The notes below the pieces were generated by a model. It had not been told where the DNA came from, ran no database searches, and worked only from the letters and a program-made list of their open reading frames with translations. Position numbers and translations under genes: made by a program. Below, piece by piece: positions 15,029 through 64,000 of a stretch of 64,000 nt of DNA; within the stretch, counting starts at the first letter, position 1; each line of letters begins with the position of its first letter. This stretch comes from an archaeon (GTDB lineage: Archaea > Undinarchaeota > Undinarchaeia > Undinarchaeales > JBDRKL01): positions 89,170 through 153,169 of the forward strand of contig JBDRKL010000012.1 of the NCBI GenBank assembly GCA_043814055.1, in the 5' to 3' direction.

Positions 15029-15098
15029 TCATTTGAGAAAAGCCTCTCTTATAGTTTACTACAATAATAATTTAAGGCAGCGCGGACAAGTGGGAGTT

Positions 15099-18619: not shown

Positions 18620-19813
18620 ATGAACCAAAAAATAATATTGGCATACAGTGGTGGACTTGATACATCGTTCTGTGTGCCATACCTGAAAGAGAAGGGATAC
18701 GACGTAATAACCCTGACAGTTGATACTGGAGGGCTGAACAAGGATGAGCTTGAGTATATCGAGAGCCATTCAAAGGAGCTTGGGGCTTCAAAGCACTACT
18801 TTGTTGACGCGAAGGATGAGGTTTATGAGAAAATCATAACCAATGTGATAAAAGCGAACGGGCTTTACCAGGGAGTTTACCCCCTGATGTGCTCGGACAG
18901 GTTCCTTTTTGGGAAGTATGCCAAGGAAATCGCGGACAAGGAGGGCACGAATGTTATAGCGCACGGCTGTACAGGCACTGGGAATGACCAGTTTCGTATA
19001 GAGCTTCCTGTGCTTGCAATGTATCCTGAGATTGAGATAGTTGCGCCAGTGAAGGAATTGGGGAGCACGCGTGATTATGAAATAGAATATCTGGAAAAGA
19101 AAGGGTTTGAAGTTCCGAAAGAGGTCAAGAAGTACACTTATAATCAGAATGTGTTTGGAGTTACGATTTCAGGCTCTGAGATTGACGAGAACAAGGAGAT
19201 TCCTGAGAGCGCGTGGGTAATGTCTAAAGTCACGAAGACTGAGCCGGAGTATGTTGAAATTGAATTTGAGAAAGGAGTCCCGGTTGGATTAGATGGTAAA
19301 AATTTGCCTGGGATTGAGATACTCGGAAAGCTGAATGAAGTTGCTGGAGCGCACGGATATGGCCAAGGATACTATATTGAAGATGAAATCCTTGGAATAA
19401 AGGGACAGCAGGCGTTTGAGGCTCCGGGTTTGATGCTAATTATAGAAGCACACAAAACATTGGAGAAATTGACGTTGACCAAGGAGCAGTTGAGCATTAA
19501 GCACGGGCTTGAGTATACTTGGGCTGAGTACGCGTATTTGGGCAAGCTGTTTGACCCAATGATGAAGGATGTTCAGGCGTTTTTTGATTCAACGCAAGAG
19601 TCCGTGAATGGAAAGGTAAAGATGAAGCTGGAGCACAAATCAGCTTTCCTGTGCGAGGTGCACAGCCCGAACTCGTTGATTGACGAAGATGTGGCGTTGT
19701 ATGCACAGAAGGCAACTTGGACCGGAGGGGACGTGAATGCATTCATGAAATTCTATGGGATGCAAAGCACAACGTTCAATAAAAAAAATGAAAAAACAAA
19801 TCTGGAAAACTGA
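18620..19813 (+). CDS. argG: Argininosuccinate synthase
   Basis: ILAYSGGLDTS PP-loop, ~397 aa. Confidence 0.9.
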   Translation: MNQKIILAYSGGLDTSFCVPYLKEKGYDVITLTVDTGGLNKDELEYIESHSKELGASKHYFVDAKDEVYEKIITNVIKANGLYQGVYPLMCSDRFLFGKYAKEIADKEGTNVIAHGCTGTGNDQFRIELPVLAMYPEIEIVAPVKELGSTRDYEIEYLEKKGFEVPKEVKKYTYNQNVFGVTISGSEIDENKEIPESAWVMSKVTKTEPEYVEIEFEKGVPVGLDGKNLPGIEILGKLNEVAGAHGYGQGYYIEDEILGIKGQQAFEAPGLMLIIEAHKTLEKLTLTKEQLSIKHGLEYTWAEYAYLGKLFDPMMKDVQAFFDSTQESVNGKVKMKLEHKSAFLCEVHSPNSLIDEDVALYAQKATWTGGDVNAFMKFYGMQSTTFNKKNEKTNLEN

Positions 19814-20963
19814 AAAAGAGAATGAATTGAATCCAACTATTCTGGAGTATAATTCAGGAGAGAATATCCAGCTTGACCAGGCTTTGCTCAAATATGACAT
19901 CAAAGTGAACAAAGCGCATGCGAATATGCTTGAGAAAACTGGGTTGATTTCAGCTGAAGAAAACAAAAAGATTCAGGAGGCATTGAACAAGATTCCAGAG
20001 GATTTTAAACTGGATCCGGAACTTGAAGACGTTCATATGAATGTTGAGTCTGCGCTTGGAGAAATTGGAAAGAAACTGCACACTAGCAAGAGCAGAAACG
20101 ACCAGGTTATGGCTGACCTGCAACTCTATATGAAAGACCAGATAGGAGAAATTGCTGGAGGACTGCAGGAGCTTCAGAAAGTTTTGAAAGAGAAAGCAGA
20201 TGAGTACAAAGGAGCAGAAATGCCGGCTTACACGCACATGCAGCCAGCGGTTTCCACCACGTTTGATGAATGGATTGGAGCTTATGCCTGCCTGTTTGAG
20301 TCAGACGTTGAGTTTTTTAATACTGCAAAAAAGTCTCTTTTTTGCCCGCTTGGCGCGTGCGCTGTGGCCGGCACCAATCTTCCAATAGACAAGAAAATGA
20401 CTGCAAAGGAGCTTGGGTTTGAAAAAAGCTTTGAGAATCCAATTGCAGTGATAAGCTCGCGCGGGGAGGTTGAGACACACTGCTTGTTCGGGCTTTCAAT
20501 GGCAATGTTGCACTTGAATAAGCTGGCGAATGACCTTCAGCTTTATTCCACATTTGAGTATGGAATGATTGAGCTAGCGGATGAAGTTTGCACTTCCAGT
20601 TCCATAATGCCGCAGAAGAAGAATCCAGACGTATTGGAGATTTTGCATTCTAAAAGTGTAGAGATTCACAGTTTGTTGATGCAAAACCTTATGATACTTA
20701 ATTCATTGACTTCTGGGTTTCACATGGATATGCAGCAGACCAAGAAGAATGTGATGCAAGGATTTGAGATTGTCCTGAAAAGTATTGAAGTTATGAAAAT
20801 TGTAATTGCCGGACTAAAAGCAAACCCGGAGAAGATGAAAGAGTTGGTTGAGGCAAGTGGCTGCAATGCGATTAAGGAAGTTGAGCAGCTTGTTTTAGGT
20901 GGGATGCCGTTCCGTGATGCGTATAAGAAAGTGAGGCAAAACTATATAACCGCGAATAGGTAA
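19788..20963 (+). CDS. argH: Argininosuccinate lyase
   Basis: Fumarase/aspartase family with TSKSRNDQV and the GSSIMPQKKNPD signature. The start is uncertain (19755 or 19788) and overlaps the argG end. Confidence 0.85.
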   Translation: MKKQIWKTEKENELNPTILEYNSGENIQLDQALLKYDIKVNKAHANMLEKTGLISAEENKKIQEALNKIPEDFKLDPELEDVHMNVESALGEIGKKLHTSKSRNDQVMADLQLYMKDQIGEIAGGLQELQKVLKEKADEYKGAEMPAYTHMQPAVSTTFDEWIGAYACLFESDVEFFNTAKKSLFCPLGACAVAGTNLPIDKKMTAKELGFEKSFENPIAVISSRGEVETHCLFGLSMAMLHLNKLANDLQLYSTFEYGMIELADEVCTSSSIMPQKKNPDVLEILHSKSVEIHSLLMQNLMILNSLTSGFHMDMQQTKKNVMQGFEIVLKSIEVMKIVIAGLKANPEKMKELVEASGCNAIKEVEQLVLGGMPFRDAYKKVRQNYITANR

Positions 20964-20995
20964 ATTCAATACCTAATTGTAGGAGAGATTTAAGA

Positions 20996-22102
20996 ATGGC
21001 TGATAAGAGTCTAATTGTGTTCAGGGACGGCGCTGTGCTAGAGGGGAGAAGCTTTGGCGCGCGGAAAACTGTTGTCGGCGAGATAGTTTTCAATACTGCT
21101 ATGACAGGTTACCAGGAATCGCTGACTGACCCTTCCTACCACAGGCAGATTCTGAACCAGACCTACCCGATTGTTGGAAATTACGGAATTGATGAGGAAA
21201 GTTTTGAGGGCAGCAAGCTCTGGGCCTCCGGGTTCCTGGTCAGGGACTTGTGCGAGAAGCCGTCGCATTATAAATCCATAAAAACTTTGGATGAATTTTT
21301 AAAAGAGCAGGATGTTCCCGGGGTTTGCGGGATTGACACAAGGGCAGTCACTGTGAAGCTGAGGAATGCTGGCTCAATGCTTGGCGCGATTGTGCCTTAT
21401 GAGGGAAAAAAGCCTGAGCTGGGAAAAATCAGGGAAGAAATCAGCTCGTTTGACTATGCAGGAGCGGACCTGGTCAAGGATTACGCAGAGGCTGAGTTCA
21501 AGGACAAGGAGAAAATTATCCACGGCAAAGGGAACACGTACAAGGTTGTGATGATTGACTGCGGAGTCAAGCTCGGGATTGTGCGCGAGATGGTGAAGCG
21601 CGATATTGAGGTTATAAGGGTTCACCCTGTGACAAGCGCTGAGAAGATTCTTGCAATGAAGCCGGACTGCGTGCACATTTCAAACGGACCTGGGAATCCT
21701 GAGACAATACTTTACGCAATAGAAACTGCGAAGAAGCTTGTGGGAAAAGTTCCAATGCACGGGATTTGCGTTGGTCACGGCGTTATTGCCGCGGCGTGCG
21801 GAGGGAAAAATTTCAAGATGAAGTTCGGCCACCGCGGAGGGAACCACGGGGTTAAGGATTTGAAAACCGGGAAGGTTTTCATCACTTCGCAGAACCACGG
21901 CTTCTGCGTGGATGGGGATTCGCTGAAAGGCACTGGGCTTGAGGTTACTGAAGTTAACTGCAATGATGGGACTGTGGAAGGAATGGATCATACAAAGTAT
22001 CCGATTTTTTCAACGCAGTACCATCCTGAGGCGAACCCAGGACCTTACGACGCGCTTGGGAAGTTTGACAGGCTTGTTGAGATGATAAAGGAGAACCGAT
22101 GA
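20996..22102 (+). CDS. carA: Carbamoyl-phosphate synthase small (glutaminase) subunit
   Basis: GATase catalytic triad region GICVGHG plus a CPSase small-chain N-domain. Confidence 0.9.
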   Translation: MADKSLIVFRDGAVLEGRSFGARKTVVGEIVFNTAMTGYQESLTDPSYHRQILNQTYPIVGNYGIDEESFEGSKLWASGFLVRDLCEKPSHYKSIKTLDEFLKEQDVPGVCGIDTRAVTVKLRNAGSMLGAIVPYEGKKPELGKIREEISSFDYAGADLVKDYAEAEFKDKEKIIHGKGNTYKVVMIDCGVKLGIVREMVKRDIEVIRVHPVTSAEKILAMKPDCVHISNGPGNPETILYAIETAKKLVGKVPMHGICVGHGVIAAACGGKNFKMKFGHRGGNHGVKDLKTGKVFITSQNHGFCVDGDSLKGTGLEVTEVNCNDGTVEGMDHTKYPIFSTQYHPEANPGPYDALGKFDRLVEMIKENR

Positions 22103-25100
22103 AAAGAGATGTGAAAAAAGTGCTTGTGATTGGCTCTGGCCCGATTGTGATAGGCCAGGCTGCAGAGTTTGACTACTCAGGAAGCCAGGCGCTAAAGGCG
22201 ATGAAAGAGGAAGGCGTCAAAACCGTGCTTGTCAATTCAAATCCCGCTACTATTCAGACTGACAGGGACATGGCTGATGCAGTTTACATAGAACCGCTGA
22301 CCCCCGAGATTGTTGAGAAAGTGATTGAAAAGGAGAAACCGGACGGAATTTTGTCCGGGATGGGAGGGCAGACAGCGTTGAATATAATTTCTGAATTGGC
22401 TGAACGCGGAGTTCTTGAAAAGCACAATGTTCAAGTGCTTGGGACTCCGGTTGATACGATTGAAACCAGCGAAAACAGGGAGTTGTTCAAGCAGATGATG
22501 CTCAAGATTGGGGAGCCGGTTCCGAAGTCAAAGAGCGTGAACACAGTTCAAGAGGCGCTGGATTTTGCAGAGGAAATAGGATATCCGGTTGTTGTAAGGC
22601 CGGCTTACACACTTGGCGGCTCAGGCGGCGGCATTGCCCACGACTTCGTTGACCTAGAGAGGATTGCAGGCAATGGCATTTCGCTGAGCAGGATAGGCCA
22701 GGTTCTCATAGAGGAATACCTGAGCGGCTGGAAGGAGATAGAGTACGAGGTTATGCGCGATTCTGCTGACAACTGCATAACCATCTGCAATATGGAGAAC
22801 CTTGACCCGATGGGAATACACACAGGGGATAGCATTGTTGTTGCGCCGTCGCAGACGCTGAGCGATGATGATTACCACATGCTGCGCTCGGCGAGCCTGA
22901 AAATTATCCGCGCGCTGAAAGTGGAGGGCGGGTGCAACATACAGTTTGCCCTTGACCCAAAAAGCAGCGATTATAGAATCATAGAAGTCAACCCGAGAGT
23001 TTCAAGAAGCTCAGCGCTCGCGTCAAAAGCAACCGGATACCCAATAGCACTCATCTCCGCTAAGATAGCAATTGGCAGAACGCTTGGTGAGATACCAAAC
23101 GCAGTAACTAAAGACACGCCAGCCTCTTTTGAGCCGGCGCTGGATTATATTGTTGTTAAAATACCAAGATGGCCATTTGAGAAGTTCCCAATGGCTGACA
23201 GAACCCTTGGAACCGAGATGCGCAGCACTGGTGAGGTGATGGCAATAGGCAGGACGTTTGAGGAGGCGCTGGACAAGGCAGTGAGGAGCTTGGATATTGG
23301 GAAGAAATTGATTGATGGGACTGGGGAGATGGATAAGGGGCACTTGAGAGAATTTTTGACAGTCGCAACTCACAAGCGGCTGTTCCACATAGTTGACGCG
23401 ATTAAGAGCGGATTTTCAGACGAGGAGATTGTTGAGCTCACAAAGATAGATCCGTGGTTTATCTGGAAAGTACGGAGCATTGTGGAGAGTGGAGATGGGA
23501 AAAAGAAAAAGTGCTACAAGATGGTGGACACTTGCGCGGCAGAGTTTGAGGCAAAGACGCCGTATTACTATTCGACTGAAGGCGATGTAAGTGAGAGCGT
23601 TGCATCAAACAAGAAGAAAATAATTATACTTGGCTCCGGGCCAATACGGATAGGACAGGGTATTGAGTTTGACTACTGCACTGTTCACGCGGTGTGGGCG
23701 CTTAGGGAGATGGGCATAGAGACAATTGTAATTAACAACAACCCAGAGACAGTTTCAACTGATTATGACACTTCGGATAAATTGTATTTTGAGCCGCTTG
23801 ATTTTGAGCACGTGATGAATGTTGTGAACGTGGAGAAACCAACAGGCATTATAACCCAGTTCGGCGGGCAGACAGCTGTAAATCTTTCTTTGCCTTTAGA
23901 AAAAGCAGGTGTTAAAGTCTTTGGAACCTCACCAAAAAGTATGGACTTGGCTGAGGACAGGACTAAATTCACAAAGGTTTTGAAAAAGCTCAAGATACCG
24001 CAGGCAAACTATGGTGTTGCACACAGCTTTGAAGATGCAAAGAAGGTTGTTGCCAGTATTGGCTATCCGGTTTTGGTCAGGCCGTCTTATGTTCTTGGTG
24101 GCAGGGCAATGGAGATAGTGCATAGCGAAGATGAACTTGTGAATTACATGAAAGAGGCCAGAAAAGTTTCTGAAAAGCGACCCATACTCATTGACCAATT
24201 TTTGCAGAATGCGATAGAAGTTGATGTTGATGCGGTGTGTGATGGAAGTGAAGTGCTTATTGGCGGCATCATGGAGCACATAGAGCAGGCAGGAGTGCAC
24301 TCTGGGGACAGCTCGTGCGTTGTGCCACCGCAGAGTTTGAGCAACGAGATTGTGAAGAAAATCAGGGATTACACTAAAAAGCTTGCGCTAGGTTTGAATG
24401 TTGTTGGGTTAATGAATGTGCAGTATGCGGTGAAAGATGAGGTGGTTTATGTTCTTGAGGCGAACCCGCGGAGCTCAAGGACAGTGCCGTTCATAAGCAA
24501 GGCAACAGGGATTCCGCTCGCGAAGATTGCGGCGCAGGTCATAGCCGGAAAGAAATTAAAAGAGTTAAAAGTGAAGAACAAAATTCTGAATCATGTTTCA
24601 GTTAAGTCCGTTGTTTTCCCGTTCAACAAGCTGCCTGGCTCTGACACCAAGCTCGGGCCTGAGATGAAGAGCACTGGAGAAAGCATGGGCATAGCTGACA
24701 GCTTCCCGGAGGCATTTTACAAGGCACAGCTCGGCGCAGGCGTTGAGATTCCATCAGATGGGTGTGTTTTTTTCGCTGTGAACCACGAGGACAAAGAGCA
24801 TATCACTGAGATAGCGCGCGGCTTTGAGGGGCTGGGGTTTGAGATACTTGCAGTTGGCCGAACTGCAAAAATTCTCCGCGTGGACGGCGTTTCAGTTAGA
24901 AAAGTCTTTAAGGCCAGCGAGGGAAACCTAAACATTGTTGACCTTATCAAGCGCGGAGAAGTGGACCTTGTGATTAACACGCCGACAAAAGGAGGATCAG
25001 CGAATAGGGATGGCTATAAGATACGGACGGCGTGCATACGCTCAAATGTTCCGTGCATAACAACGCTTGCAGGGGCAAGGGCTGCGCTCAAGGCGATTGA

Positions 25101-25152
25101 AAATGCAGGTAGGGGCGGGATGCAGGTTAAGCCGCTTGGGGATTACTACTGA
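22099..25152 (+). CDS. carB: Carbamoyl-phosphate synthase large subunit
   Basis: Duplicated ATP-grasp halves, oligomerisation and MGS-like domains, 1017 aa. ATGA-coupled to carA. Confidence 0.9.
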   Translation: MKRDVKKVLVIGSGPIVIGQAAEFDYSGSQALKAMKEEGVKTVLVNSNPATIQTDRDMADAVYIEPLTPEIVEKVIEKEKPDGILSGMGGQTALNIISELAERGVLEKHNVQVLGTPVDTIETSENRELFKQMMLKIGEPVPKSKSVNTVQEALDFAEEIGYPVVVRPAYTLGGSGGGIAHDFVDLERIAGNGISLSRIGQVLIEEYLSGWKEIEYEVMRDSADNCITICNMENLDPMGIHTGDSIVVAPSQTLSDDDYHMLRSASLKIIRALKVEGGCNIQFALDPKSSDYRIIEVNPRVSRSSALASKATGYPIALISAKIAIGRTLGEIPNAVTKDTPASFEPALDYIVVKIPRWPFEKFPMADRTLGTEMRSTGEVMAIGRTFEEALDKAVRSLDIGKKLIDGTGEMDKGHLREFLTVATHKRLFHIVDAIKSGFSDEEIVELTKIDPWFIWKVRSIVESGDGKKKKCYKMVDTCAAEFEAKTPYYYSTEGDVSESVASNKKKIIILGSGPIRIGQGIEFDYCTVHAVWALREMGIETIVINNNPETVSTDYDTSDKLYFEPLDFEHVMNVVNVEKPTGIITQFGGQTAVNLSLPLEKAGVKVFGTSPKSMDLAEDRTKFTKVLKKLKIPQANYGVAHSFEDAKKVVASIGYPVLVRPSYVLGGRAMEIVHSEDELVNYMKEARKVSEKRPILIDQFLQNAIEVDVDAVCDGSEVLIGGIMEHIEQAGVHSGDSSCVVPPQSLSNEIVKKIRDYTKKLALGLNVVGLMNVQYAVKDEVVYVLEANPRSSRTVPFISKATGIPLAKIAAQVIAGKKLKELKVKNKILNHVSVKSVVFPFNKLPGSDTKLGPEMKSTGESMGIADSFPEAFYKAQLGAGVEIPSDGCVFFAVNHEDKEHITEIARGFEGLGFEILAVGRTAKILRVDGVSVRKVFKASEGNLNIVDLIKRGEVDLVINTPTKGGSANRDGYKIRTACIRSNVPCITTLAGARAALKAIENAGRGGMQVKPLGDYY

Positions 25153-25643
25153 GGAAGCCTTGGCCGACGGCCGGTTTCTTTAACAAGCCGGTTAAATTTG
25201 TCCTGCAAATCTGTCATAGCGTATTCAATCAGCTCATCCAATTTGGAGATGTCTTCTTCTGTGACTTTCAAAAAAAGAGTGAATGAATGCTGGACGCCTT
25301 TTAATTGATTCAAGTTGTTTTGGGTGGTTTCAAAATCTCTGCGAAGTGAGGTGATTGTGAAGGGGGATGAATGGTTTTCCTTTAAAGAGCGTGCGATGCC
25401 TGCAATTCGGAATTCCTCGTGCTGTATTGAATCGTCTATTTGCGCCAGTATTCCTTTGAACTCTTCTTGCCGTGCGAGCAGAGCCTTTTTAAACGTATTC
25501 AAACCAGGCAGGATGGAATTGAAGTCCTTGTAGTCCTGATCAGAAATGCGGGCGCGTGACTTGGTAAAAAATTTGTCTGCCCACGCCCTGAGACCCTCTT
25601 CAAGTTCCTCAGTGAGGTGATTGTACCCCTTTTGATCACCCAT
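25146..25643 (-). CDS. Hypothetical coiled-coil protein (165 aa)
   Basis: No recognisable motif. Overlaps the carB stop by 7 nt on the opposite strand. Confidence 0.4.
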   Translation of the reverse strand: MGDQKGYNHLTEELEEGLRAWADKFFTKSRARISDQDYKDFNSILPGLNTFKKALLARQEEFKGILAQIDDSIQHEEFRIAGIARSLKENHSSPFTITSLRRDFETTQNNLNQLKGVQHSFTLFLKVTEEDISKLDELIEYAMTDLQDKFNRLVKETGRRPRLPQ

Positions 25644-25846
25644 ATGATAAAATAGTTGTTTTCGCTGTATAAAAGCTTTTATGGAAAGGTATAAATCACA
25701 TTTTAAACATGATATTTTAGATATGGGCGCAAAAACTTCAGTTCGGAGAAGCAGGCGGCTTTAGCCGCGCCCATCGGTATCTTTTTATTCACCCAAAGAT
25801 TATTAGTCTTCAGCCAATGGGCTGTTGACGGTGTAAGGCAAAAAAA

Positions 25847-26033
25847 GGATCCGTAGCCTAGTCTGGATAAGGCGACAGCCTTCTAACAACCGCAAAATCG
25901 GTTGACGCTTTGGGTCGCATTCCGCTTCGCGGAAGCGACCCGGCTCGCGCGTTCGCACGCGCTCGCTCGGTCAATTCGAGCAAGTTGGTTGGAAGCCAGC
26001 TGTAAATCAGGGGTTCAAATCCCCTCGGATCCA
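25847..26033 (+). tRNA. tRNA-Arg (anticodon TCT) with a 112-nt intron at canonical position 37/38
   Basis: Acceptor GGATCCG/CGGATCC, D-arm GCCT-AGTCTGGATA-AGGC, anticodon stem ACAGC (25875-79) with loop CTTCTA|A, 3' stem GCTGT at 25999-26003, T-arm AGGGG-TTCAAAT-CCCCT. Intron ~25886-25997. Confidence 0.8.
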
Positions 26034-26047
26034 CTCAAACCTAAAAT

Positions 26048-26297
26048 GGGCCAGTAGCCTAGTCTGGATACGAGGCGGAAGCAAGCTCCCGCTTGTTTCC
26101 AGCTCCGCTGGAAAAGGCGTCAGGCTTCGGACCAGCGGCAAATTCATTTGCTCTGGAAGGATACCTGAAGACCGAGGGTTCAAAACTCCGCCGCTGCGGA
26201 GGATAGCAGGGGGCTTGGTTAAAACCGAGCATTCCGCCAAAAGCGGAAGCCCCCTATAAAATGCAGCGCCGGACTGAAAATCCCTTCTGGCCCACCA
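26048..26297 (+). tRNA. tRNA-Arg (anticodon TCG) with three apparent introns (D-arm, anticodon 37/38, T-loop) and encoded CCA
   Basis: Acceptor GGGCCAG/CTGGCCC, D-stem GCCT, D-loop AGTCTGGATA, then a 44-nt insert (26071-26114) before AGGC-G. Anticodon stem TCAGG (26120-24) with loop CTTCGG, a ~32-nt insert, then A-CCTGA (26163-68). T-stem GAGGG (26174-78) pairs CCCTT (26282-86) across a ~90-nt insert. Confidence 0.6.
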
Positions 26298-26333
26298 TAA
26301 TCATTAAAACCAAGGAAAACCTACGGGAAAACA

Positions 26334-28496
26334 ATGGCAAAGAAAGAAAAGTCAAAAAAAGCGGTAAAGAAGAAGGTAATGCCGAAAACTCTAAAGAAGA
26401 AGGCAGCCATTAAGAAGAAACTAGTAGTGAAGAAGAAAGCTTTGATTAAGAAAAAAATTGTAGTGAAGAAGAAACCAGTGTCTAAGAAGAAAGTGACACC
26501 AAAGAAGAAGGTTTCAAAACCAAAGAAAGCCCTTGCAAAGAAAAAGCTGGTGGTGAAAAAGAAAGCTGCAAAACCGAAAGCCAAAAAGGCAGCGATTAAG
26601 AAGAAACCGGTAAAAGCAAAGAAAACTGTGAAGAAGACAACAGTTAAGAAGAAGGTTTCAATAAAAAAGAAGGCTGTAAAAGCCAAGAAAAAAGCAGCAA
26701 AACCTAAGAAGCCGCCGGAACCAAAAGAAGAGCAAGAACCTGAGAAACCAAATGAACCTACCTATGACCCGTGGCAGGAACTAAAGAATCAGGCACAAGC
26801 AGCGATTGAAGAAGCTGTGAAGACCGCGAAGATTAAGGTTCCATCAGAGGTAAATTTTGCAACTGCGATTGAAGAGCCGCCAAGCGCCAAGATGGGAGAT
26901 GTGGCTTGTAGCATTGCGTTTTCATTGGGAAGAGCATCTAAGAAGAACCCAAGACAGCTTGCGGAACTGCTCATATCAAAAGTAAAGAAGCCGCCAATTT
27001 TCAAGAAGGTTGCGCTCGCAGGAGCGTACATCAATTTCTTTCTGGATCACGATAAGTTCGCAAAGCACATTCTTGCAAAGGTTGTTGACGACGATTATGG
27101 CCGGGGAGGGAAGAAGGGCGACAAGGTAATGGCAGAGTTCTGCCAGGTTAACACGCACAAGGCGTTTCATATTGGGCATATTAGGGGAACCATACTTGGC
27201 GAGACTATTTCACGCATTTTGGAGTACAGCGGGTATGAAGTTGTGAGAGCAAATTACCAAGGGGACATTGGCTCGCACGTTGCAAAGTGGATGTGGTATT
27301 ATAACAAGTTCAAGAGTGGAGAGAGCCCGCATGGCAAGGGGGAAACCTGGCTTGCTAATATTTACCGGGCTGCCACGCAGGAGCTAAGGGAGCACCCTGA
27401 ATACGAGAAAGAGACCAGCGAGATTCTGCAGAAGCTTGAAGCCGGTGAAGATGAAAAACTGATGCAGGCCTGGCGGGAAACTCGGCAGTGGTCGCTTGAT
27501 GAGTATGAGAAAATTTACAAAGAGCTTGACGTGCGATTTGACCGATATTTCTTTGAGAGCGAGATGGGAAACTCTGGCAAGGAAATCGTGGACGAACTGC
27601 TCAAGAAAAAGATTGCAAAGATGAGCGAGGGCGCTATTGTGATAAATTTGGAGAAGTTTGGGCTCGGAACGTATCTTTTGCTTAAGAGCGACGGGACCGC
27701 GCTTTATTCCACCAAGGACCTGGCGCTTGCAAAGGCTAAGTTTGAAGAGTTTGGAATTGATATTTCACTTTATGTTGTTGGATCAGAGCAGCGGCTTTAT
27801 TTCCAGCAGCTGTTCAAGACGCTTGAGCTGATGGGCTTCAAGCGCGCGAAGAAGTGCCACCATCTTGCTTTTGACCTGATAAGCCTGAAGGAAGGCAAGA
27901 TGTCCTCAAGGGAAGGTACTGCCATTTTATATTCTGAGCTGAGAGACGGGATGTTCAAGAGGGCGCTTGAAGAAGTTATGGAAAGAAATCCGGAGATGGA
28001 CCCGCACGAACAGAAGATCATTGCGAATAAAGTTGCGTACGGCGCGATGAAGTTTGACATACTTAACATAAACAACAACAAGACAATATTCTTTGACTGG
28101 GAAAAAGCACTTGAATTTGAGGGCGAGACCGCGCCTTATGTGCAGTACGCCGGAGTTCGATGCAAGAGAATACTTGAGAAGGCTGGAAAAGTGCCTGAGA
28201 CTGGAAAAGTTGACTTCGGAAAGCTGAAGCTTGCAGCAGAGCACGAGCTTGTCAAGATGCTCGCGAGATTCCCTGGGGTTATTGCCACGGCTGCGAAGGA
28301 GTACAAACCGCACTTCATTGCGAATTATGTATATGGGCTAGCTGACAAGTTTAGCACTTTCTATACCGAGGCGCCTATAATGGACGCGGGAGATAAGGCA
28401 ACAAAAGATGCTCGGCTTATGCTGCTAAGCGCAACATATAAAACCCTTGAGAAAGCCCTATATCTGCTCGGAATAGAAATTCCTGAGCGTATGTAA
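26334..28496 (+). CDS. argS: Arginyl-tRNA synthetase with a ~145-aa polylysine N-terminal extension
   Basis: Class I HIGH motif (AFHIGHIRG), KMSK-like GKMSSREG, and a DALR anticodon-binding C-terminus. The N-terminus is KKK(L/I)VVKKK repeats. The antisense ORF 26321..26686 is an artefact of the repeats. Confidence 0.9.
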   Translation: MAKKEKSKKAVKKKVMPKTLKKKAAIKKKLVVKKKALIKKKIVVKKKPVSKKKVTPKKKVSKPKKALAKKKLVVKKKAAKPKAKKAAIKKKPVKAKKTVKKTTVKKKVSIKKKAVKAKKKAAKPKKPPEPKEEQEPEKPNEPTYDPWQELKNQAQAAIEEAVKTAKIKVPSEVNFATAIEEPPSAKMGDVACSIAFSLGRASKKNPRQLAELLISKVKKPPIFKKVALAGAYINFFLDHDKFAKHILAKVVDDDYGRGGKKGDKVMAEFCQVNTHKAFHIGHIRGTILGETISRILEYSGYEVVRANYQGDIGSHVAKWMWYYNKFKSGESPHGKGETWLANIYRAATQELREHPEYEKETSEILQKLEAGEDEKLMQAWRETRQWSLDEYEKIYKELDVRFDRYFFESEMGNSGKEIVDELLKKKIAKMSEGAIVINLEKFGLGTYLLLKSDGTALYSTKDLALAKAKFEEFGIDISLYVVGSEQRLYFQQLFKTLELMGFKRAKKCHHLAFDLISLKEGKMSSREGTAILYSELRDGMFKRALEEVMERNPEMDPHEQKIIANKVAYGAMKFDILNINNNKTIFFDWEKALEFEGETAPYVQYAGVRCKRILEKAGKVPETGKVDFGKLKLAAEHELVKMLARFPGVIATAAKEYKPHFIANYVYGLADKFSTFYTEAPIMDAGDKATKDARLMLLSATYKTLEKALYLLGIEIPERM

Positions 28497-28511
28497 TAGA
28501 GACAAAAGTGT

Positions 28512-28694
28512 GCCAGGGTAGCCTAGTTTGGATAAGGCGACAGCCTCCTAACAGCGGCAAATTCCGCTGGCAAATTGGGCCGCATTCGGCTTTCAGCCGA
28601 AGCGACCCGGCCCGCTGCGCGGGCAAAAGCCAATAGCGGAAAGCTGATGGAAGCAAGCTGTAAGTCGAGGGTTCAAATCCCTCCTCTGGTGCCA
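28512..28694 (+). tRNA. tRNA-Arg (anticodon CCT) with a 105-nt intron at 37/38 and encoded CCA
   Basis: Acceptor GCCAGGG/CTCTGGT (two G-U pairs), D-arm GCCT-AGTTTGGATA-AGGC, anticodon stem ACAGC with loop CTCCTA|A, 3' stem GCTGT (28657-61), T-arm GAGGG-TTCAAAT-CCCTC. Intron 28551-28655. Confidence 0.75.
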
Positions 28695-28699
28695 TAATA

Positions 28700-29182
28700 A
28701 TGACCTTAGTAGACGAATGCAAAATAAGGGACGCAGCGCCTGAAGATGTTGATGCAATCATAGAACTGTACAAGGAAGCCCTAGTCCCGATATGGGACAG
28801 GATACACAGGCCCTATGACCTTGTTAGGCTAAGGAGAACGCTTGAGAAACGGTTTGAAAAAGGGCATAGCGGTCTGGTGGTTGTTAGGGAGAACAAGATT
28901 ATTGGGTGCGTTCTGACCGCACTGCGAACCGGGAAGATATCCAATAAAAAAGTAATGAAAATATCGTCTCTTCTGGTCAAGCCGGAATTTTTTGGGAAAG
29001 GCTTAGGCCAGGAACTCATTAGAATCGTAGAAGACACAGCAAGGCAAAATGGCGTGGAGCGGATAAGACTGAAGTGCGCCTATAAGAACACTGCACTGGA
29101 GTTCTACAACAAAATGGGTTTTCAGGAAGACCAGATAAGCTTTATCAAGGAGCTAAAAACAAAAAAAGCCCCCGTAGTCTAG
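28700..29182 (+). CDS. GNAT family N-acetyltransferase (160 aa)
   Basis: Acetyl-CoA binding motif region (Q/R)xxGxG/A: FGKGLGQELIRIV. Its last ~15 nt overlap the 5' end of tRNA-Arg(GCG). Confidence 0.7.
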   Translation: MTLVDECKIRDAAPEDVDAIIELYKEALVPIWDRIHRPYDLVRLRRTLEKRFEKGHSGLVVVRENKIIGCVLTALRTGKISNKKVMKISSLLVKPEFFGKGLGQELIRIVEDTARQNGVERIRLKCAYKNTALEFYNKMGFQEDQISFIKELKTKKAPVV

Positions 29183-29241
29183 TTTGGATAGGATGTGAGC
29201 TTGCGGAGCTCGAGGCTTGGGTTCAAATCCCGACGGGGGCA
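29168..29241 (+). tRNA. tRNA-Arg (anticodon GCG), intron-less
   Basis: Acceptor GCCCCCG/CGGGGGC, D-arm GTCT-AGTTTGGATA-GGAT, anticodon arm TGAGC-TTGCGGA-GCTCG, T-arm TTGGG-TTCAAAT-CCCGA, discriminator A. Confidence 0.8.
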
Positions 29242-30717
29242 CTAATGTTTTCTTTTACTAAAACTCTTTTTGAACTCGTGGCGCCAGAGCTTGTCGCGGA
29301 ATGACTTTCGCTTTGAGTTGAAAAAGAAGACTGCAGCTATTATGAGGAGTATTACAACAGCTAAAAGCAGTTTTCCGCCTAAGGAGTCCAGCAACCTGAC
29401 CGGTTTTTCCTCAATTACAAATGCTGCAGATTCGCTCTCCGCAAGCCGCTGTTCATCCACAAGAATCGTGACCTTGAGCAAGTGGTCGCCAGGCGCTTCT
29501 GGGATGTCCCAGACGCTCAACACATCCTTTTTCTCGCCCCTGAGAAGCGTGAATGAATTAAAACCAATTTTATAAGAGTCCATATAGAAGTTTACCGTGC
29601 CCTGAATGTCAATGTTTCCTGTGTTCTCAAGCGCGGCAACCAAATCTACTTGGTCTCCAATGTACGCGGAGCTGGCGTTGAGCTTGAGGCCGGCAAGTAA
29701 TTTCTTTTCTTCCGCGACTGTGAAAGTCTTTGCGCACTTGCCCTTGTTGCCATACTCATCAGTTGCCTCTGCCTTTGCAGTGTACTGGCCGGGAGGGTCC
29801 TGCTTGCTTATCGGGGCTTCAAAAGAGAAGTGGCCGTTGCTATCTGAGATTGCGTCATATGTTGTTGAGATGTCCTCTGAGGTTGTAAACCAGGATTTTG
29901 TGCTTATTTTATCAAGTGGCTCGTCGTGCACATTGTCTATGGTTCCAAAGAGGACCACAACACCGCCTGGGTTTATGTTTGTCTTCTGGAGAGAACACGC
30001 CATCTTGAGCTCATCCGTGACAATGATGTCATCAATGATGGAGGTTCTTGCGTTCCCGTAGTTGTCAAGAAAGTTTGCTTCTAGTGAATATGTTCCAGGA
30101 GGGTCTGACGCTTTGAATGTGTAAGCGTAGGATATGTAGCCGTTCTTAAGGTCTGCGGAATCTGTAACAATGCCACCCAGACCGGACTCCTCAAGGCTTA
30201 TGGACGCTTTGCCCTCTACCGGGAACCCGTGGGCGTTAAGGACTATACTGCTGAACTCAAGGGTTTCGCCTCGGTTGAAGATGCGAGCGTTTATGCTACG
30301 CTCAACAAAGAGGTTCTCGGTTATGGTGAATTTGCCAGAGTAAAAATCTGCATAGGAATCGTAGCCGGTCTTTATCTTTACCTTGATTCTCCAGTCGTCC
30401 GCGGTGTTTATGGTGCTGGTTACGTCCCAGAGGAGTGTGCCCTTGGTGATTAGAGAGAATGAAACTGGGGTGTCTGCGAGGAAGGAGTATATTTTAGTGG
30501 TTATTGGAATTTCCTGGGAAGTAGAGTCGCTCACAGCAAGGAACTGGACCTCAGAGCCTGGAATGTTCTCGCCGAGCTCAATTGTTCCAGTAATCACGAT
30601 TTGGTCGCCGTAGTTGAACGTGCTGTTCGCCCGCGGGTTTGAAACTGTCATTCCAGCGTGAGCCCCGGATAGCACGATTAGAAATAACACTAGGGCGCAT
30701 AATGCAAGCTTTTTCAT
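29242..30717 (-). CDS. Secreted / cell-surface protein with N-terminal signal peptide and C-terminal TM anchor (491 aa)
   Basis: MKKLALCALVLFLIVLSGAHA signal and a C-terminal LLLAVVILLIIAAVFFF anchor followed by a basic tail. Beta-rich repeats suggest Ig/CARDB-like domains. Confidence 0.5.
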   Translation of the reverse strand: MKKLALCALVLFLIVLSGAHAGMTVSNPRANSTFNYGDQIVITGTIELGENIPGSEVQFLAVSDSTSQEIPITTKIYSFLADTPVSFSLITKGTLLWDVTSTINTADDWRIKVKIKTGYDSYADFYSGKFTITENLFVERSINARIFNRGETLEFSSIVLNAHGFPVEGKASISLEESGLGGIVTDSADLKNGYISYAYTFKASDPPGTYSLEANFLDNYGNARTSIIDDIIVTDELKMACSLQKTNINPGGVVVLFGTIDNVHDEPLDKISTKSWFTTSEDISTTYDAISDSNGHFSFEAPISKQDPPGQYTAKAEATDEYGNKGKCAKTFTVAEEKKLLAGLKLNASSAYIGDQVDLVAALENTGNIDIQGTVNFYMDSYKIGFNSFTLLRGEKKDVLSVWDIPEAPGDHLLKVTILVDEQRLAESESAAFVIEEKPVRLLDSLGGKLLLAVVILLIIAAVFFFNSKRKSFRDKLWRHEFKKSFSKRKH

Positions 30718-30757
30718 ATTCTCCCAAGGATGGGTATGAATTTTGAGTATTTAAGGG

Positions 30758-31657
30758 TTACTTTGTGATTTGAGTTCCTGCTTTTCCGCCAAGAGCTTTC
30801 TCAATATCGCTGAGGTGGCAGATTATTGCACGCTCGCCGCCGGATTCAATAAAGTTTATTGCGGCTTGAATTTTCGGGCCCATTGAGCCCGCTGGGAAAG
30901 AATCCATGTGTTTTTTTGCTTCTTTAACCGTGAGTTTGTCAAGGAGCTTTTGGTTTGGCTTGCCGAAGTTGAGGTATGCGCCTTTCGTGTCCGTGACTAT
31001 TAACAAAATATCTGCTCCGATTTCCTCGCCGAGCTTCGCGCTTGCAAGGTCCTTGTCTATGACTGCTTCTATGCCATGGTAGTTGTGCTCTTCCCTTTTT
31101 ATCACAGGAATTCCGCCCCCGCCGCAGGTTACAACCAGGAAGCCGGCCTTGAGGAGCTCCTTGATTTTGTAAGAGCCGACAATCCTTATTGGTTTTGGAG
31201 ATGCCACGACTTTGCGCCAGCCCTTTGCGGTTTTCACAAAGCCTGGTTTTTTGTTTTTGTAAGCAGGGCCGATTGGCTTTGTCGGGTTCTTGAACGCTGG
31301 GTCGTTCGCGTCAACCTGAACGTAAGTTGAAAGGGTGGAGAGGAGCGGGTGCATAATTCCGATTTTCATTAATTCGTTATCAAGTGTTTTCTCAATCATG
31401 TAACCGATTTGACCCTGAGTCATAGCGACCAGGACTTCAAGGGGCATTTCAGGGACTTCAGAAGTTGCCTGCTGCTGGAGAAGAAGGTTGCCGACCTGGG
31501 GTCCGTTGCCGTGCGTGATTACAAGATTGTATTTGCCGTATAATTTCGCGACCTTGCTCAGCGGGATTTCAAGGTTGTTGAACTGCTCGCTCACGTTCCC
31601 TTCCTGACCTTTCTGGATGAGGGCGTTGCCTCCGAGCGCGATAATTAGAGTTTTCAT
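30758..31657 (-). CDS. arcC: Carbamate kinase
   Basis: Amino-acid kinase family with LIIALGGNAL at the N-terminus, ~300 aa, typical carbamate kinase length and motifs. Confidence 0.75.
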   Translation of the reverse strand: MKTLIIALGGNALIQKGQEGNVSEQFNNLEIPLSKVAKLYGKYNLVITHGNGPQVGNLLLQQQATSEVPEMPLEVLVAMTQGQIGYMIEKTLDNELMKIGIMHPLLSTLSTYVQVDANDPAFKNPTKPIGPAYKNKKPGFVKTAKGWRKVVASPKPIRIVGSYKIKELLKAGFLVVTCGGGGIPVIKREEHNYHGIEAVIDKDLASAKLGEEIGADILLIVTDTKGAYLNFGKPNQKLLDKLTVKEAKKHMDSFPAGSMGPKIQAAINFIESGGERAIICHLSDIEKALGGKAGTQITK

Positions 31658-31745
31658 TAATTTTGTATTATTTTGAGGGGTAATATGCTTTTTTGTTTGT
31701 GGAAAAACAAAATGTTTATGAAGGAATGAATTTAAATGAAATAAA

Positions 31746-32486
31746 ATGGCAGTAACAAGCTATAGGAGAGACGGCGCTTTGCTTTTGGACAAGCTTTTCC
31801 CAGGGTTCGGGTTGGATGTTAAGATTTATGAAATCTGGAGGGATTTTGACTTAGATGATTACAAGATGGGGAAAGACGATCGTCTTATGGTGAGAACATT
31901 CGGCAGTAATTCTCCAAATGTTAGAAACCCAGATATAATTGTTAAGAATACTGCGGATGCGCTTAAGTTTATGAAAAGGCAGGCTAAGAAAAATCGGTTT
32001 GGATACATAGGTCAAAGGACCATGAATGAAAATGATATAAAATATTCTGTGAGTGGCTCGCTTGATTATAGGAGAATTCCTTCATTAGCATTCACAATAC
32101 GAGAAGTGGACAAAGGATTCATATTGAATAATATGGAAACAGATGAGCGCGGAACAACTACACGAGAGGCAAAGGTGCTTGTTGAGTTCAAATATGATTA
32201 TTTCTCCGCAACTCCGAAAGCTCCTAGCTTGTCACCACCTAATTTTCCGAAGAGCGAGCTTAGAAAACTGAAGAAAACTGTACTTCAGGTAGTGAAGTTC
32301 GCAAAAATAGTTGATGATAATTACACTAAAAACTATGCGAAGAAGGACCTAATGCCAAATTTCCTTTTGTATGTTTCAAAGAAGGGCGACATTTTGCCAG
32401 TTGATTTAAAGCAGAAATACAATTTGAAGAGTACACAAAGAAAAATCTGGATGGGGATTAAAGTTTCCCCATCAAAAACAGCATAA
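31746..32486 (+). CDS. Hypothetical protein (246 aa), cysteine-free, low GC, sitting between arcC and argF
   Basis: No recognisable domain. Its base composition (~38% GC) differs from the flanking ~50% GC genes. Confidence 0.4.
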   Translation: MAVTSYRRDGALLLDKLFPGFGLDVKIYEIWRDFDLDDYKMGKDDRLMVRTFGSNSPNVRNPDIIVKNTADALKFMKRQAKKNRFGYIGQRTMNENDIKYSVSGSLDYRRIPSLAFTIREVDKGFILNNMETDERGTTTREAKVLVEFKYDYFSATPKAPSLSPPNFPKSELRKLKKTVLQVVKFAKIVDDNYTKNYAKKDLMPNFLLYVSKKGDILPVDLKQKYNLKSTQRKIWMGIKVSPSKTA

Positions 32487-33390
32487 TCGCGTTCTGGGCG
32501 TGCATTCTGTTCTCCGCCTGGTCGTACACGATGCTCTGCGGTCCGTCAATCACGTCAGCTGTTTGCTCAAGCCCACGGGCTGCTGGGAGGCAGTTCATGA
32601 AAATCGCGTCCGGCTTTGCCTTGCTCATGAAGTCCGCGTTAATTTGGTACGGCATGAACTTTGCCTTGCGCGCTTCCATCTGGTCTTCTGGAATGTGGTA
32701 GGACATCCAGGAGTCAGTGTAGACCACATCCGCGTCCTTTGCTGCCTCAGCTGCGTCGTGTGTTACGATTACTTTGCCTCCAGAGGTTTTGCAGAGCTCT
32801 TTGCACTCGTCAAGAACTTCCTGCTCAGGGGAATATTCAGCACCCTCTGGGCAGGCTACTGCGATTTCAAAGCCCATCACAGCTGCTGCGCGCATCAGGT
32901 CGTAGGTCACGTTGTTGTGGCAGTCGCCGGAGTATGCCATCTTGATTCCTTCCAGACTTCCTTTCTTTTCAACTATTGCTTGGAGGTCGCAGATGATTTG
33001 GCACGGGTGCGCGAAGTCGTCAAGCGCGTTTATTACTGGCACGTTGGATTCTTCAGAGAATTCTTTAAGGTCTTCCTTCTTGTTCACGCGGGCCATAATT
33101 ATGTCAACATATCTTGAGGCGCACTTCGCAGTGTCCTTGATGTTCTCTTTCTTGCCGAGCGGGGAGTCCTTGATGCTGTAGAATATTGCGTGGCCACCGA
33201 GGCGAGTCATACCGGTTTCAAAGGAGACGCGGGTGCGCAGAGAGGGTTTCTCAAAGAGCATTAGAAGGGTCTTACTCTTCATTGTTGTGTTGTAATTCTC
33301 AGGGTTCTTTTTTATGTCAATTGCTTTTTCAATAATAGTTGCAATCTCGTCCTTTGTAAAATCAGATACTTTTAGCAAATGTCTTGTCAT
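32458..33390 (-). CDS. argF: Ornithine carbamoyltransferase
   Basis: STRTR carbamoyl-phosphate motif, HPCQ and an SMG-like ornithine-binding region. The antisense ORFs 32500-33181 were discarded. Confidence 0.9.
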   Translation of the reverse strand: MTRHLLKVSDFTKDEIATIIEKAIDIKKNPENYNTTMKSKTLLMLFEKPSLRTRVSFETGMTRLGGHAIFYSIKDSPLGKKENIKDTAKCASRYVDIIMARVNKKEDLKEFSEESNVPVINALDDFAHPCQIICDLQAIVEKKGSLEGIKMAYSGDCHNNVTYDLMRAAAVMGFEIAVACPEGAEYSPEQEVLDECKELCKTSGGKVIVTHDAAEAAKDADVVYTDSWMSYHIPEDQMEARKAKFMPYQINADFMSKAKPDAIFMNCLPAARGLEQTADVIDGPQSIVYDQAENRMHAQNAIMLFLMGKL

Positions 33391-33502: not shown

Positions 33503-34840
33503 ATGGCAGAAAAAAAGAAAGTATTGATTATGGGTGCGGCAGGCACAGATTTCCATGTTTTTAACACGTACTATCGGGACAACGATGAGTATGAGGTTGT
33601 GGCGTTCACAGCCGAACAGATTCCAGGGATTGGAGGAAGAATCTATACAAAGGAACTTGCAGGGGATTTGTATCCTGATGGGATTCCAATTTTTGATGAA
33701 TCAGAACTTCCAAAACTCATAAAGGAAAAGGGAGTTGAGCTCGTGGTATTTGCATACCACGATTTGACTTATGAGTATGTTATGCACCGCGCGTCCATTG
33801 TGAATGCGAACGGTGCAGACTTCATGCTGACCGGGACGAAGAAGAGGATGATAAAATCAGAGAAGCCTGTTATTGCAGTGTGCGCTGTGAGAACTGGTTG
33901 TGGCAAGTCGCAGACAGCGAGAAAGATTTGCGACATAATGCTGAAGAAAGGCTACAAGATTGTTGCAATAAGGCACCCGATGCCTTATGACCAGGATTTG
34001 AATTCGCAAACCTGCCAGAGATTTGCAAGCCGCGAGGATTTGGACAAGTACAGGTGCACTATTGAGGAGAGGGAAGAGTACGAGCCATACATAGAGCGCG
34101 GCATGGTGATTTATGCCGGGGTGGATTATGAGAAGATTCTGCGCGAGGCAGAGAAAGAGGCGGACATAATCCTCTGGGACGGGGGGAACAATGACTTCTC
34201 GTTCTACAAGCCAGATTTGTACATAACTGTTGCAGACCCTAGGCGACCTGGCCACGAGATTTCTTACTATGCAGGTGAAATAAATTCGCGGCTTGCTGAC
34301 TATGTTATAATAAATAAGGTTGACAGCGCGGAAGAGAAGGACATCAAGACTGTTGAGAAAAATATCAAGAGCGTCAATCCGAATGCAATTATTATCAGGG
34401 CTGAGTCAAAACTGACTCTGGATGATGCTGAGGCGATTAAAGGCAGGCGGGTTCTTGTGGTTGATGACGGACCAACGCTCACACACGGCGGACTGCCTAC
34501 AGGAGCTGGCTACTTCGCAGCGAAGAGGAACGGGGCAAAGGAGATAATTGACCCAAGGCCTTACGCGGTTGGTTCTATAAAGGCAACTTTTGAAAAGTAT
34601 CCGCAGACAACCGAGGTTCTGCCAGCGATGGGTTATGGAGATGAGCAGATTAAAGAGCTTGAAGAGACCATAAACGCTGCGGACTGTGATGTGGTGGTTG
34701 ATGGCAGTCCGGTTGACTTGGCAAAGATTGTCAAGGTGAACAAGCCGATTATAAGGGTAACCTATGACCTTGAAGAGATTGGCGAGCCAAATCTTGAAAC
34801 TGTCCTGGACGAGTTTGAGCAAAAGTTCATAAAGAAGTAA
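33503..34840 (+). CDS. Cyclic 2,3-diphosphoglycerate synthetase family protein (COG2403 P-loop NTPase)
   Basis: N-terminal Rossmann-like LIMGAAGTD, Walker A AVRTGCGKSQT, ~445 aa. The assignment is by family resemblance only. Confidence 0.45.
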   Translation: MAEKKKVLIMGAAGTDFHVFNTYYRDNDEYEVVAFTAEQIPGIGGRIYTKELAGDLYPDGIPIFDESELPKLIKEKGVELVVFAYHDLTYEYVMHRASIVNANGADFMLTGTKKRMIKSEKPVIAVCAVRTGCGKSQTARKICDIMLKKGYKIVAIRHPMPYDQDLNSQTCQRFASREDLDKYRCTIEEREEYEPYIERGMVIYAGVDYEKILREAEKEADIILWDGGNNDFSFYKPDLYITVADPRRPGHEISYYAGEINSRLADYVIINKVDSAEEKDIKTVEKNIKSVNPNAIIIRAESKLTLDDAEAIKGRRVLVVDDGPTLTHGGLPTGAGYFAAKRNGAKEIIDPRPYAVGSIKATFEKYPQTTEVLPAMGYGDEQIKELEETINAADCDVVVDGSPVDLAKIVKVNKPIIRVTYDLEEIGEPNLETVLDEFEQKFIKK

Positions 34841-44095: not shown

Positions 44096-44106
44096 AAAAA
44101 ACTAAA

Positions 44107-63948: not shown

Positions 63949-64000
63949 ACTAATCACAAAAGTGGCTTCACAAAGTGGAGAGCCACCTTGGGAGGTGCGG

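Follow-up and report, generated by a model that had tools for sequence, protein, structure and literature searches.

In the 64,000-nucleotide stretch of DNA analyzed here, from an Undinarchaeota-like DPANN archaeon with a small genome (contig JBDRKL010000012.1, positions 89,170 to 153,169; hereafter the window), argS, the gene for arginyl-tRNA synthetase (ArgRS), lies between two pairs of tRNA-Arg genes. Synthetase and tRNA genes are normally scattered over the genome. From gene order and sequence signals, we put the probability at about 0.5 that this block is a clade-conserved arginine-decoding module within an island of arginine-metabolism genes, in which a co-transcript of argS and tRNA genes would couple ArgRS to its tRNA substrates. 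The block runs from 25847 to 29242 entirely on the + strand, with successive gaps of 14, 36, 15, 5, and -15 nt:

25847-26033, + strand: tRNA-Arg(UCU), with a 112-nt intron at 37/38 (25886-25997) and no encoded CCA
26048-26297, + strand: tRNA-Arg(UCG), with an encoded CCA and introns at 26071-26114 (44 nt, D-loop), 26131-26162 (32 nt, 37/38), and 26185-26280 (96 nt, T-loop, ~59/60)
26298-26333, + strand: spacer of 36 nt with the TATA-like box cATTAAAAcc, the putative argS promoter
26334-28496, + strand: argS, encoding a 720-aa arginyl-tRNA synthetase
28512-28694, + strand: tRNA-Arg(CCU), with an encoded CCA and a 105-nt intron at 37/38 (28551-28655)
28700-29182, + strand: GNAT acetyltransferase of 160 aa (Pfam Acetyltransf_1, 9.5e-17)
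29168-29242, + strand: tRNA-Arg(GCG), intronless, found by ARAGORN and by Rfam (58.3 bits)

All four tRNA-Arg genes are where the initial annotation had placed them around argS, as seen with ARAGORN, Rfam, and cloverleafs spliced by hand. The GNAT open reading frame (ORF) starts 5 nt past tRNA-Arg(CCU) and shares its final 15 nt with tRNA-Arg(GCG). It matched no NCBIfam equivalog at cut-off, and we rejected it as a conserved member of the module, as relatives have another ORF or none at that position.

To place the block in its clade, we compared 14 Undinarchaeota-type argS loci, comprising the window and 13 others (designated by L numbers), with ArgRS identities of 53-70%. The relatives' tRNAs were located by ARAGORN in intron mode, BLAST with exons, a D-loop and acceptor-stem scanner, and inspection by eye. 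The order UCU-UCG-argS-CCU-GCG, with all four tRNAs, was present in 11 of the 14 loci. L083 has three Arg tRNAs and its contig ends just past CCU; L001 and L081 have CCU and GCG only, and the region upstream of argS is rearranged in both. tRNA-Arg(UCG) adjoins argS in 12 loci, ending 9-251 nt before the argS start, and tRNA-Arg(CCU) likewise adjoins it in 12, starting 0-81 nt past the stop. An Arg-like tRNA was found within 500 nt of argS in at most 3 of 77 other argS loci from the same genome scan (other DPANN, Euryarchaeota, and Chloroflexota), using a loose scanner that over-calls. Thus, the arrangement is a trait of the clade and not of the ArgRS type, and the synteny does not show the random tRNA cluster, occurring also without argS, that the initial annotation had named as the outcome that would speak against it. 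Recurrence across the clade makes the block look like a selected arginine-decoding module rather than a chance cluster. The chance of four specific genes all falling within 1 kb of argS is about 3e-10, if the genome is assumed to be ~1 Mb; conservation in relatives is the stronger argument. A metagenome scan with the conserved 5' exon was uninformative, its only two hits being contigs of an A-rich DPANN lineage unrelated to this one; by eye, the tRNA in these contigs adjoins a thermosome-like (chaperonin) ORF, not argS.

The surroundings of this core have not stayed in place: L002 and L087 have carAB downstream and inverted, and the UCU-UCG and CCU-GCG intervals of relatives have taken up differing ORFs. 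It is possible, though we hold it to be on the unlikely side, that the arrangement is only a relic of local tRNA-Arg duplication beside argS, with the order kept without selection in small genomes that rearrange slowly. tRNA-Arg(UCU) and tRNA-Arg(CCU) share nearly the same D-arm and anticodon arm along with homologous introns, longer-range synteny (tmk ... PHP) is partly retained, and a tRNA is displaced or missing in L081, L001, and L085, all of which would fit such a relic. However, the flanks have often been inverted, moved, gained, or lost, yet both junctions with argS have held in 12 loci down to an ArgRS identity of 53%. The closest paralogues, UCU and CCU, also sit on opposite sides of argS, which is unexpected from simple tandem duplication, and spacings of 0-16 nt suggest functional packing.

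Standard gene finders recovered only some of the tRNA-Arg genes. Default ARAGORN reported tRNA-Arg(GCG) and one other tRNA in the whole window, or one of the four Arg genes. The Rfam tRNA family (RF00005, gathering score 29), whose threshold GCG also passed, added 25847-26033 (UCU, 51.9 bits, with a 114-nt insertion after the anticodon) and, with permissive filters, 28512-28691 (CCU, 45.9 bits), giving three of the four at best. Unspliced tRNA-Arg(UCG) was undetected by ARAGORN and Rfam, permissive settings included. The tools struggle because three of the four genes are interrupted by introns; the intron mode of ARAGORN sees the CCU gene, misplaces introns, and labels the UCU gene tRNA-Pyl(cta). 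We therefore cut out the inserts by hand and ran the spliced sequences through ARAGORN. UCU, UCG, and CCU each gave a clean cloverleaf tRNA-Arg, overturning the tRNA-Pyl(cta) label in favor of tRNA-Arg(UCU), and the Arg identity assigned to the four genes beforehand holds under tRNA prediction. In practical terms, standard tRNA finders overlooked at least one of the four genes, and default ARAGORN overlooked three.

The spliced tRNAs also carry the expected sequence features. Their anticodon loops (CUUCUAA, CUUCGGA, CUCCUAA, and UUGCGGA) each center an Arg anticodon in a 7-nt loop, and the D-loops AGUCUGGAUA and AGUUUGGAUA have an A directly after G18-G19. A20 and C35 are arginine identity elements. 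All six Arg codons are within reach of the four anticodons if wobble is allowed. AGG, read by the CCU anticodon, is the top Arg codon at 36% of Arg codons; CGG, at 10%, needs U34 wobble by UCG or an unseen tRNA-Arg(CCG), of which the window had none, nor did any relative within 6-10 kb of its argS. The tRNA at the UCG position of L093 (5842-5965) has a UCG-type body with the anticodon loop CUUCUGA (UCU), reflecting either a switched anticodon or faulty assembly.

The argS product scored 501.9 bits against TIGR00456 (cut-off 261.65), matched Pfam PF03485 (Arg_tRNA_synt_N), PF00750 (tRNA-synt_1d), and PF05746 (DALR_1), and holds the FHIGH and GKMSSR motifs. Thus, argS (26334-28496) encodes a true class I arginyl-tRNA synthetase. 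The catalytic core (residues 146-720) follows a poly-Lys N-terminal extension (residues 1-145, 26334-26768) with 66 Lys, no Arg, and an isoelectric point of 10.8; in the Lys-rich part frame 0 alone is open, and the other frames have 15 and 9 stops. Analogous tails of ~90-110 aa occur in the ArgRS proteins P0002, P0004, and P0005, and most of the clade is without one. The TATA-binding protein of the window (1254-1895) also has a Lys-rich N-terminal tail, of ~33 aa (1254-1355). These tails are reminiscent of the Lys-rich tRNA-binding appendages of eukaryotic synthetases.

The closest ArgRS relatives are 70%, 64%, and then 53-58% identical, and those with names are Undinarchaeota ('Naiadarchaeum', 'Undinarchaeales'), within DPANN. 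Horizontal transfer as a cassette, one way to understand the co-inheritance proposed in the initial annotation, finds nothing in its favor: the ArgRS relatives rank as vertical descent predicts, and the G+C content of argS is 0.455-0.475 against 0.469 for the window.

We then considered how the block might be transcribed. As the host is archaeal, we scanned for TATA-like hexamers and oligo-T tracts instead of using a sigma-70 promoter scanner; oligo-T tracts are archaeal termination signals. The hexamer before argS starts 30 nt before the ATG in the window and lies 28-38 nt before it (mostly at -29 to -31) in 11 of the 14 loci; in L093 it is at -22, and a box that looks similar by eye precedes argS in L081. 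From these matches, argS very likely has a promoter of its own and a message with little or no leader. No TATA-like box was found in the 60 nt upstream of tRNA-Arg(CCU) in the window, and in six lineages, including the window, CCU starts 0-16 nt past the argS stop with no TATA-like box in range. The T-run scan of the window found no oligo-T after UCU, UCG, argS, or CCU, and the sole run of at least five Ts inside the block is a T6 within the GNAT ORF. The first non-coding oligo-T on the strand comes after tRNA-Arg(GCG), with TGTTTTCTTTT at 29246-29256 and TTTTT at 29267-29271. In L002, L081, L087, L091, and L093, oligo-T directly follows CCU. By sequence, argS-CCU-GNAT-GCG fits a mixed tRNA-mRNA operon, with one strand, gaps of 15, 5, and -15 nt, and one terminal oligo-T.

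On the proposed mechanism, tRNA-Arg(UCU) and tRNA-Arg(UCG), 14 nt apart, would be made as one dicistronic precursor that, because no oligo-T follows them, would run into the argS promoter region. A TATA box of its own, ~30 nt before the ATG, would drive argS and yield a leaderless or near-leaderless message, and transcription would carry on through tRNA-Arg(CCU), GNAT, and tRNA-Arg(GCG) to stop at the oligo-T past 29242. RNase P, tRNase Z, and splicing endonuclease would excise the tRNAs and fix the 3' end of the argS mRNA. The outcome would be a coupled output of ArgRS and its tRNA substrates. Such coupling is biochemically sensible because ArgRS is among the few synthetases that need bound tRNA even to activate the amino acid. 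Linkage kept through phylum-scale divergence may mean that dosage coupling of a tRNA-dependent enzyme is useful in minimal, regulator-poor genomes; alternatively, it may mean that tRNA processing is used to shape an mRNA. The conserved linkage is established by the comparison of loci; co-regulation of arginine supply and arginine decoding, as first suggested for this region, is plausible from sequence signals.

Several observations weigh against a co-transcribed module. With its own promoter box, argS does not need the upstream tRNA pair for its expression, and the block is thus not a single simple operon. In L083, L086, L003, and L093, the gap of 38-81 nt between argS and CCU holds a TATA-like box, and CCU is possibly transcribed alone. 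CCU is displaced by 1.6-2.1 kb in L085 and L081, apparently without harm, and GCG is on the opposite strand in L002, L085, and L093. Several of the 14 loci are closely related (the pairs L085/L093, L001/L088, and L002/L087), and the number of independent lineages is nearer 9-10. The promoter and terminator calls are putative, being consensus matches only. Finally, neither the ThrRS gene nor the Asp/AsnRS gene of the window has a cognate tRNA beside it, and on these two cases we rejected a general pairing rule of aminoacyl-tRNA synthetases and their tRNAs for this genome. As a separate observation, hisS of L088 (806-2223, - strand) is preceded, at a distance of 59 nt, by tRNA-His(GUG) in the same orientation, a second synthetase-cognate tRNA pair in the clade.

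The close spacing could have another use. ArgRS, helped here by its poly-Lys tail, might bind the tRNAs on its own transcript and tune translation, processing, or decay, in the style of the ThrRS operator. True cognate tRNAs lie 0-45 nt from both ends of the ORF in many lineages; in the window, UCG would be ~36 nt before the start codon on a read-through RNA, with no terminator between UCG and argS, CCU is 15 nt after the stop, and a Lys-rich domain is appended to the enzyme. We nevertheless consider such autoregulation improbable: with a conserved TATA box at about -30, most argS mRNA is predicted to be without the upstream tRNA, most relatives keep the arrangement without the Lys tail, and the idea is reached purely by inference.

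The introns that hide the tRNA genes were analyzed for the bulge-helix-bulge motif, defined as two 3-nt bulges flanking a 4-bp helix at the exon-intron junctions. Read from the sequence, the UCU intron has a perfect motif (hBHBh'), with the stem ACAGC/GCUGU, the central helix CUUC/GAAG, the 3-nt bulges UAA and CCA, and the outer helix CAACC/GGUUG. The CCU intron and the 37/38 intron of UCG have the motif with one mismatch in the central helix, by sequence and by folds. The T-loop introns of tRNA-Arg(UCG) and of a tRNA-Pro in the window (described below) have a common layout of stem, UUCAAA-helix-GAAAAU, and stem, and the strict 3-4-3 motif was not seen in them. Relaxed motifs at non-canonical introns would require a broad-specificity endonuclease, of which there is none in the window.

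The long 37/38 introns of tRNA-Arg(UCU) in the window, L002, and L086 and of tRNA-Arg(CCU) in the window are homologous and form three hairpins. Their RNAalifold consensus over four sequences has 31 pairs, of which 10 are retained despite changes on both sides. No Rfam family matched the long introns even at E<=1. We rejected a role as C/D-box guide RNAs, as for the tRNA-Trp intron of haloarchaea, since no C/D boxes are present. A covariance model (R1) built from the introns alone scored its training copies at 93-110 bits and found one untrained copy, at 43880-43990 on the - strand of the window (50 bits, E ~1e-12), just 3' of a tRNA-Gln gene and outside any tRNA. A 22-nt stretch from the 3' end of tRNA-Gln (AATCCGTTCGGGGCTACCATAA) is repeated exactly and in direct orientation, at 43897-43918 and 43996-44017, followed by a degenerate third repeat at 44078-44099 and a second partial element; the repeats (43897-44099) enclose reverse-oriented copies of the tRNA-Arg intron hairpins. 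This repeat-bracketed copy may have been left by a small element with tRNA genes as its target. The motif GC-AUUC-hairpin-GAAG-C is also in the UCG T-loop intron of the window and L086. In L086 (11775-12057), tRNA-Arg(CCU) and tRNA-Arg(GCG) have an identical D-loop intron, which suggests transfer of introns between isoacceptors.

Such traces raise the prospect of a hotspot for mobile DNA, in which the cluster would have grown out of repeated insertion and duplication around tRNA genes and would not be an expression unit. The varied cargo between the tRNAs (a membrane-protein family termed family X, AlaXM-like, Rieske, GNAT, and intein/LAGLIDADG-like ORFs) is consistent with it, as are the shared D-loop intron of L086 and the intron-like element beside tRNA-Gln with 22-nt repeats of the tRNA 3' end on either side. 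Insertion of this kind accounts for cargo and introns but not for a fixed-order cognate set kept with argS throughout the clade, and we regard it as a doubtful explanation of the block. A more speculative idea, and a long shot, is a self-referential ribonucleoprotein circuit: ArgRS, in this lineage with its poly-Lys tail as a tRNA-binding part, would bind tRNA moieties in its own transcripts so that its synthesis is set by tRNA-Arg processing or charging, and the three-hairpin intron would be a functional RNA, possibly mobile and released as a circle, and not a spacer. If true, synthetase and tRNA would be wired together in a previously undescribed way, in a genome that has very few regulators.

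That DPANN archaea have disrupted tRNA genes was known before (PMC5829648, PMC3239211). As in the disrupted tRNAs of Thermoproteales and DPANN (PMC5829648, PMC3239211, PMC4090602), the introns here occupy D-loop, 37/38, and T-loop sites with up to three per gene, and intron sequence is common to different tRNAs. In contrast to those cases, the introns here reach unusual lengths (96-137 nt), the one at 37/38 is a three-hairpin RNA conserved with compensatory changes across deep lineages, and one intron copy is found away from any tRNA. Novelty may lie in the conserved long structured intron, which is a candidate for a new structured-RNA family. The Undinarchaeota description paper (PMC7414124) makes no mention of arginine or introns, and two rows of its Table 1 give tRNAscan-SE counts of 15 and 17 tRNAs for Undinarchaeota metagenome-assembled genomes. 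Such low counts may partly reflect undetected disrupted genes and not incompleteness alone.

Three other tRNA genes of the window contain introns. tRNA-Pro(UGG), at 13064-13182 (+), has a T-loop intron at 13124-13165 (42 nt) and folds as a clean cloverleaf once spliced; it was missed by ARAGORN and Rfam alike and adjoins tmk, as it does in several relatives. tRNA-Gln(CUG), at 43819-43915 (+), has an intron at 43857-43877 (21 nt, 37/38) with a perfect bulge-helix-bulge. ARAGORN named this gene tRNA-Pro(tgg), which we rejected, as the spliced form is Gln in ARAGORN. tRNA-Met(CAU), at 63766-63950 (+), has an intron at ~63805-63913 (109 nt, 37/38) with the same closing helix as the Arg introns (CAACC/GGUUG) and a similar multi-hairpin layout, with little sequence similarity.

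By analogy, the putative module resembles known kinds of arrangement, namely mixed operons of tRNA and mRNA and synthetase-tRNA gene pairs such as pylTS. The Escherichia coli tufB operon (thrU-tyrU-glyT-thrT-tufB) likewise places tRNAs and a gene for a protein of the translation apparatus on one strand, with a shared, processed transcript that would have its counterpart here. Its tRNAs, however, are unrelated to the specificity of the protein and its co-transcription is experimentally shown, whereas the tRNAs here are cognate, flank argS on both sides in an archaeon, and are putatively co-transcribed. pylT-pylS also links a synthetase with its cognate tRNA and with amino-acid biosynthesis genes (pylBCD), but the pyl genes serve a non-canonical amino acid with one tRNA and are transferable as a cassette; argS is a housekeeping synthetase gene with four isoacceptors and a ranking of relatives that fits vertical inheritance. 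As in mitochondrial tRNA punctuation and archaeal tRNA-like processing elements, abutting tRNAs (0-16 nt) would set mRNA ends through RNase P and tRNase Z. Here, however, such punctuation would concern only one or two mRNAs, and its tRNAs are substrates of the enzyme that the message encodes. Expression could also be tied to tRNA status by a tRNA or tRNA-like structure beside a synthetase gene, as at the thrS operator or a T-box; here there is no leader riboswitch or mimic, the neighbors are bona fide tRNA genes, and any regulation is hypothetical. In the argS-lysA operon of Corynebacterium glutamicum, argS is likewise linked to amino-acid biosynthesis, but there are no tRNA genes and the partner pathway is that of lysine. 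We found no description of the argS/tRNA-Arg arrangement in the searchable literature, which is no proof of novelty.

The arginine-metabolism genes and other ORFs around the block are:

18620-25152, + strand: argG, argH, carA, and carB (Pfam; argH TIGR00838, 332 bits)
25146-25643, - strand: ORF of 165 aa between carB and tRNA-Arg(UCU)
29242-30717: secreted Ig/MG2-like protein of 491 aa, between the block and arcC
30758-31657, - strand: arcC, carbamate kinase (TIGR00746, 364.8 bits against a cut-off of 358.25)
31746-32486, + strand: ORF of 246 aa between arcC and argF
32458-33390, - strand: argF, ornithine carbamoyltransferase (TIGR00658, 374.6 bits)
59211-63112, + strand: lysW-lysX/argX-argC-argB(lysZ)-argD(lysJ), the LysW-carrier route to ornithine

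Pfam and NCBIfam bear out the initial annotation for argG-argH-carA-carB upstream and for carbamate kinase and ornithine carbamoyltransferase downstream, although it overlooked the GNAT gene between CCU and GCG and the Ig/MG2-like protein before arcC. The 165-aa ORF had no Pfam or NCBIfam match and no homologue among the block-neighboring ORFs of related loci. The lysW-argX-argC-argB-argD operon was also identified correctly: its products scored 338.8 (TIGR02144, cut-off 275.6), 383.6 (TIGR01850, 233.6), 197.1 (NF010662, 194), and 414.7 (TIGR00707, 410.05), and the LysW ORF has the C-terminal EEDWGE and scored 67.6 bits against NF041070, just under the cut-off of 75. Both subunits of the reported fumarase are present, but an unrelated metallo-beta-lactamase-fold ORF (15839-16591) separates the alpha-type from the beta-type subunit (16564-17022), and a link to arginine through fumarate is speculative. 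Within this region (14535-17022), the alpha-type ORF either carries ~190 additional residues at its N-terminus or has had its start set wrongly; L086 has the two subunits side by side.

In the relatives, carAB is directly upstream of the block in ~9 of the 14 loci, and arcC and/or argF are downstream in 7. argG-argH-carA-carB is upstream of argS in L086, L091, and L093 and partially so in L003, L082, L083, L085, and L092; the trio of arcC, the 246-aa ORF, and argF is also in L001. What had been described as an arginine supercluster is better seen as a conserved core module in a looser, rearranged arginine island than as a single supercluster. The module thus neighbors genes of arginine synthesis (argGH, carAB, and the lysW operon) as well as arcC and argF, which are typical of arginine/citrulline catabolism; no arginine deiminase, the third component of the catabolic arginine deiminase pathway, was recognized among the annotated ORFs of the window. 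The 246-aa ORF and another conserved ORF, of 445 aa (33503-34840), accompany arcC and argF in the window and in L001, and the 445-aa ORF is also in L087 and L088; one of the two could fill a missing step. In L086 (2066-3742), argG is fused to a GNAT domain (558 aa).

The relatives also carry other genes inside or next to the module. Family X, unmatched in Pfam and NCBIfam, consists of polytopic membrane proteins of ~150-190 aa that recur inside the module of relatives and have no copy in the window. They fall into two paralogous groups, one in the UCU-UCG interval and the other in the CCU-GCG interval. The copies are:

L083, 9352-9894
L085, 9198-9740 and 13517-14071
L088, 8512-9114 and 9152-9733
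L092, 5281-5838
L093, 5261-5803
L081, 13983-14519
L082, 3668-4207
L087, 9434-9961
L091, 8626-9072

An AlaXM-like alanyl-tRNA editing protein is encoded between UCU and UCG in L082 (676-1335) and L091 (5019-5720). In L087, a 249-aa ORF (6473-7222) directly upstream of tRNA-Arg(UCU) has weak intein/LAGLIDADG-like matches.

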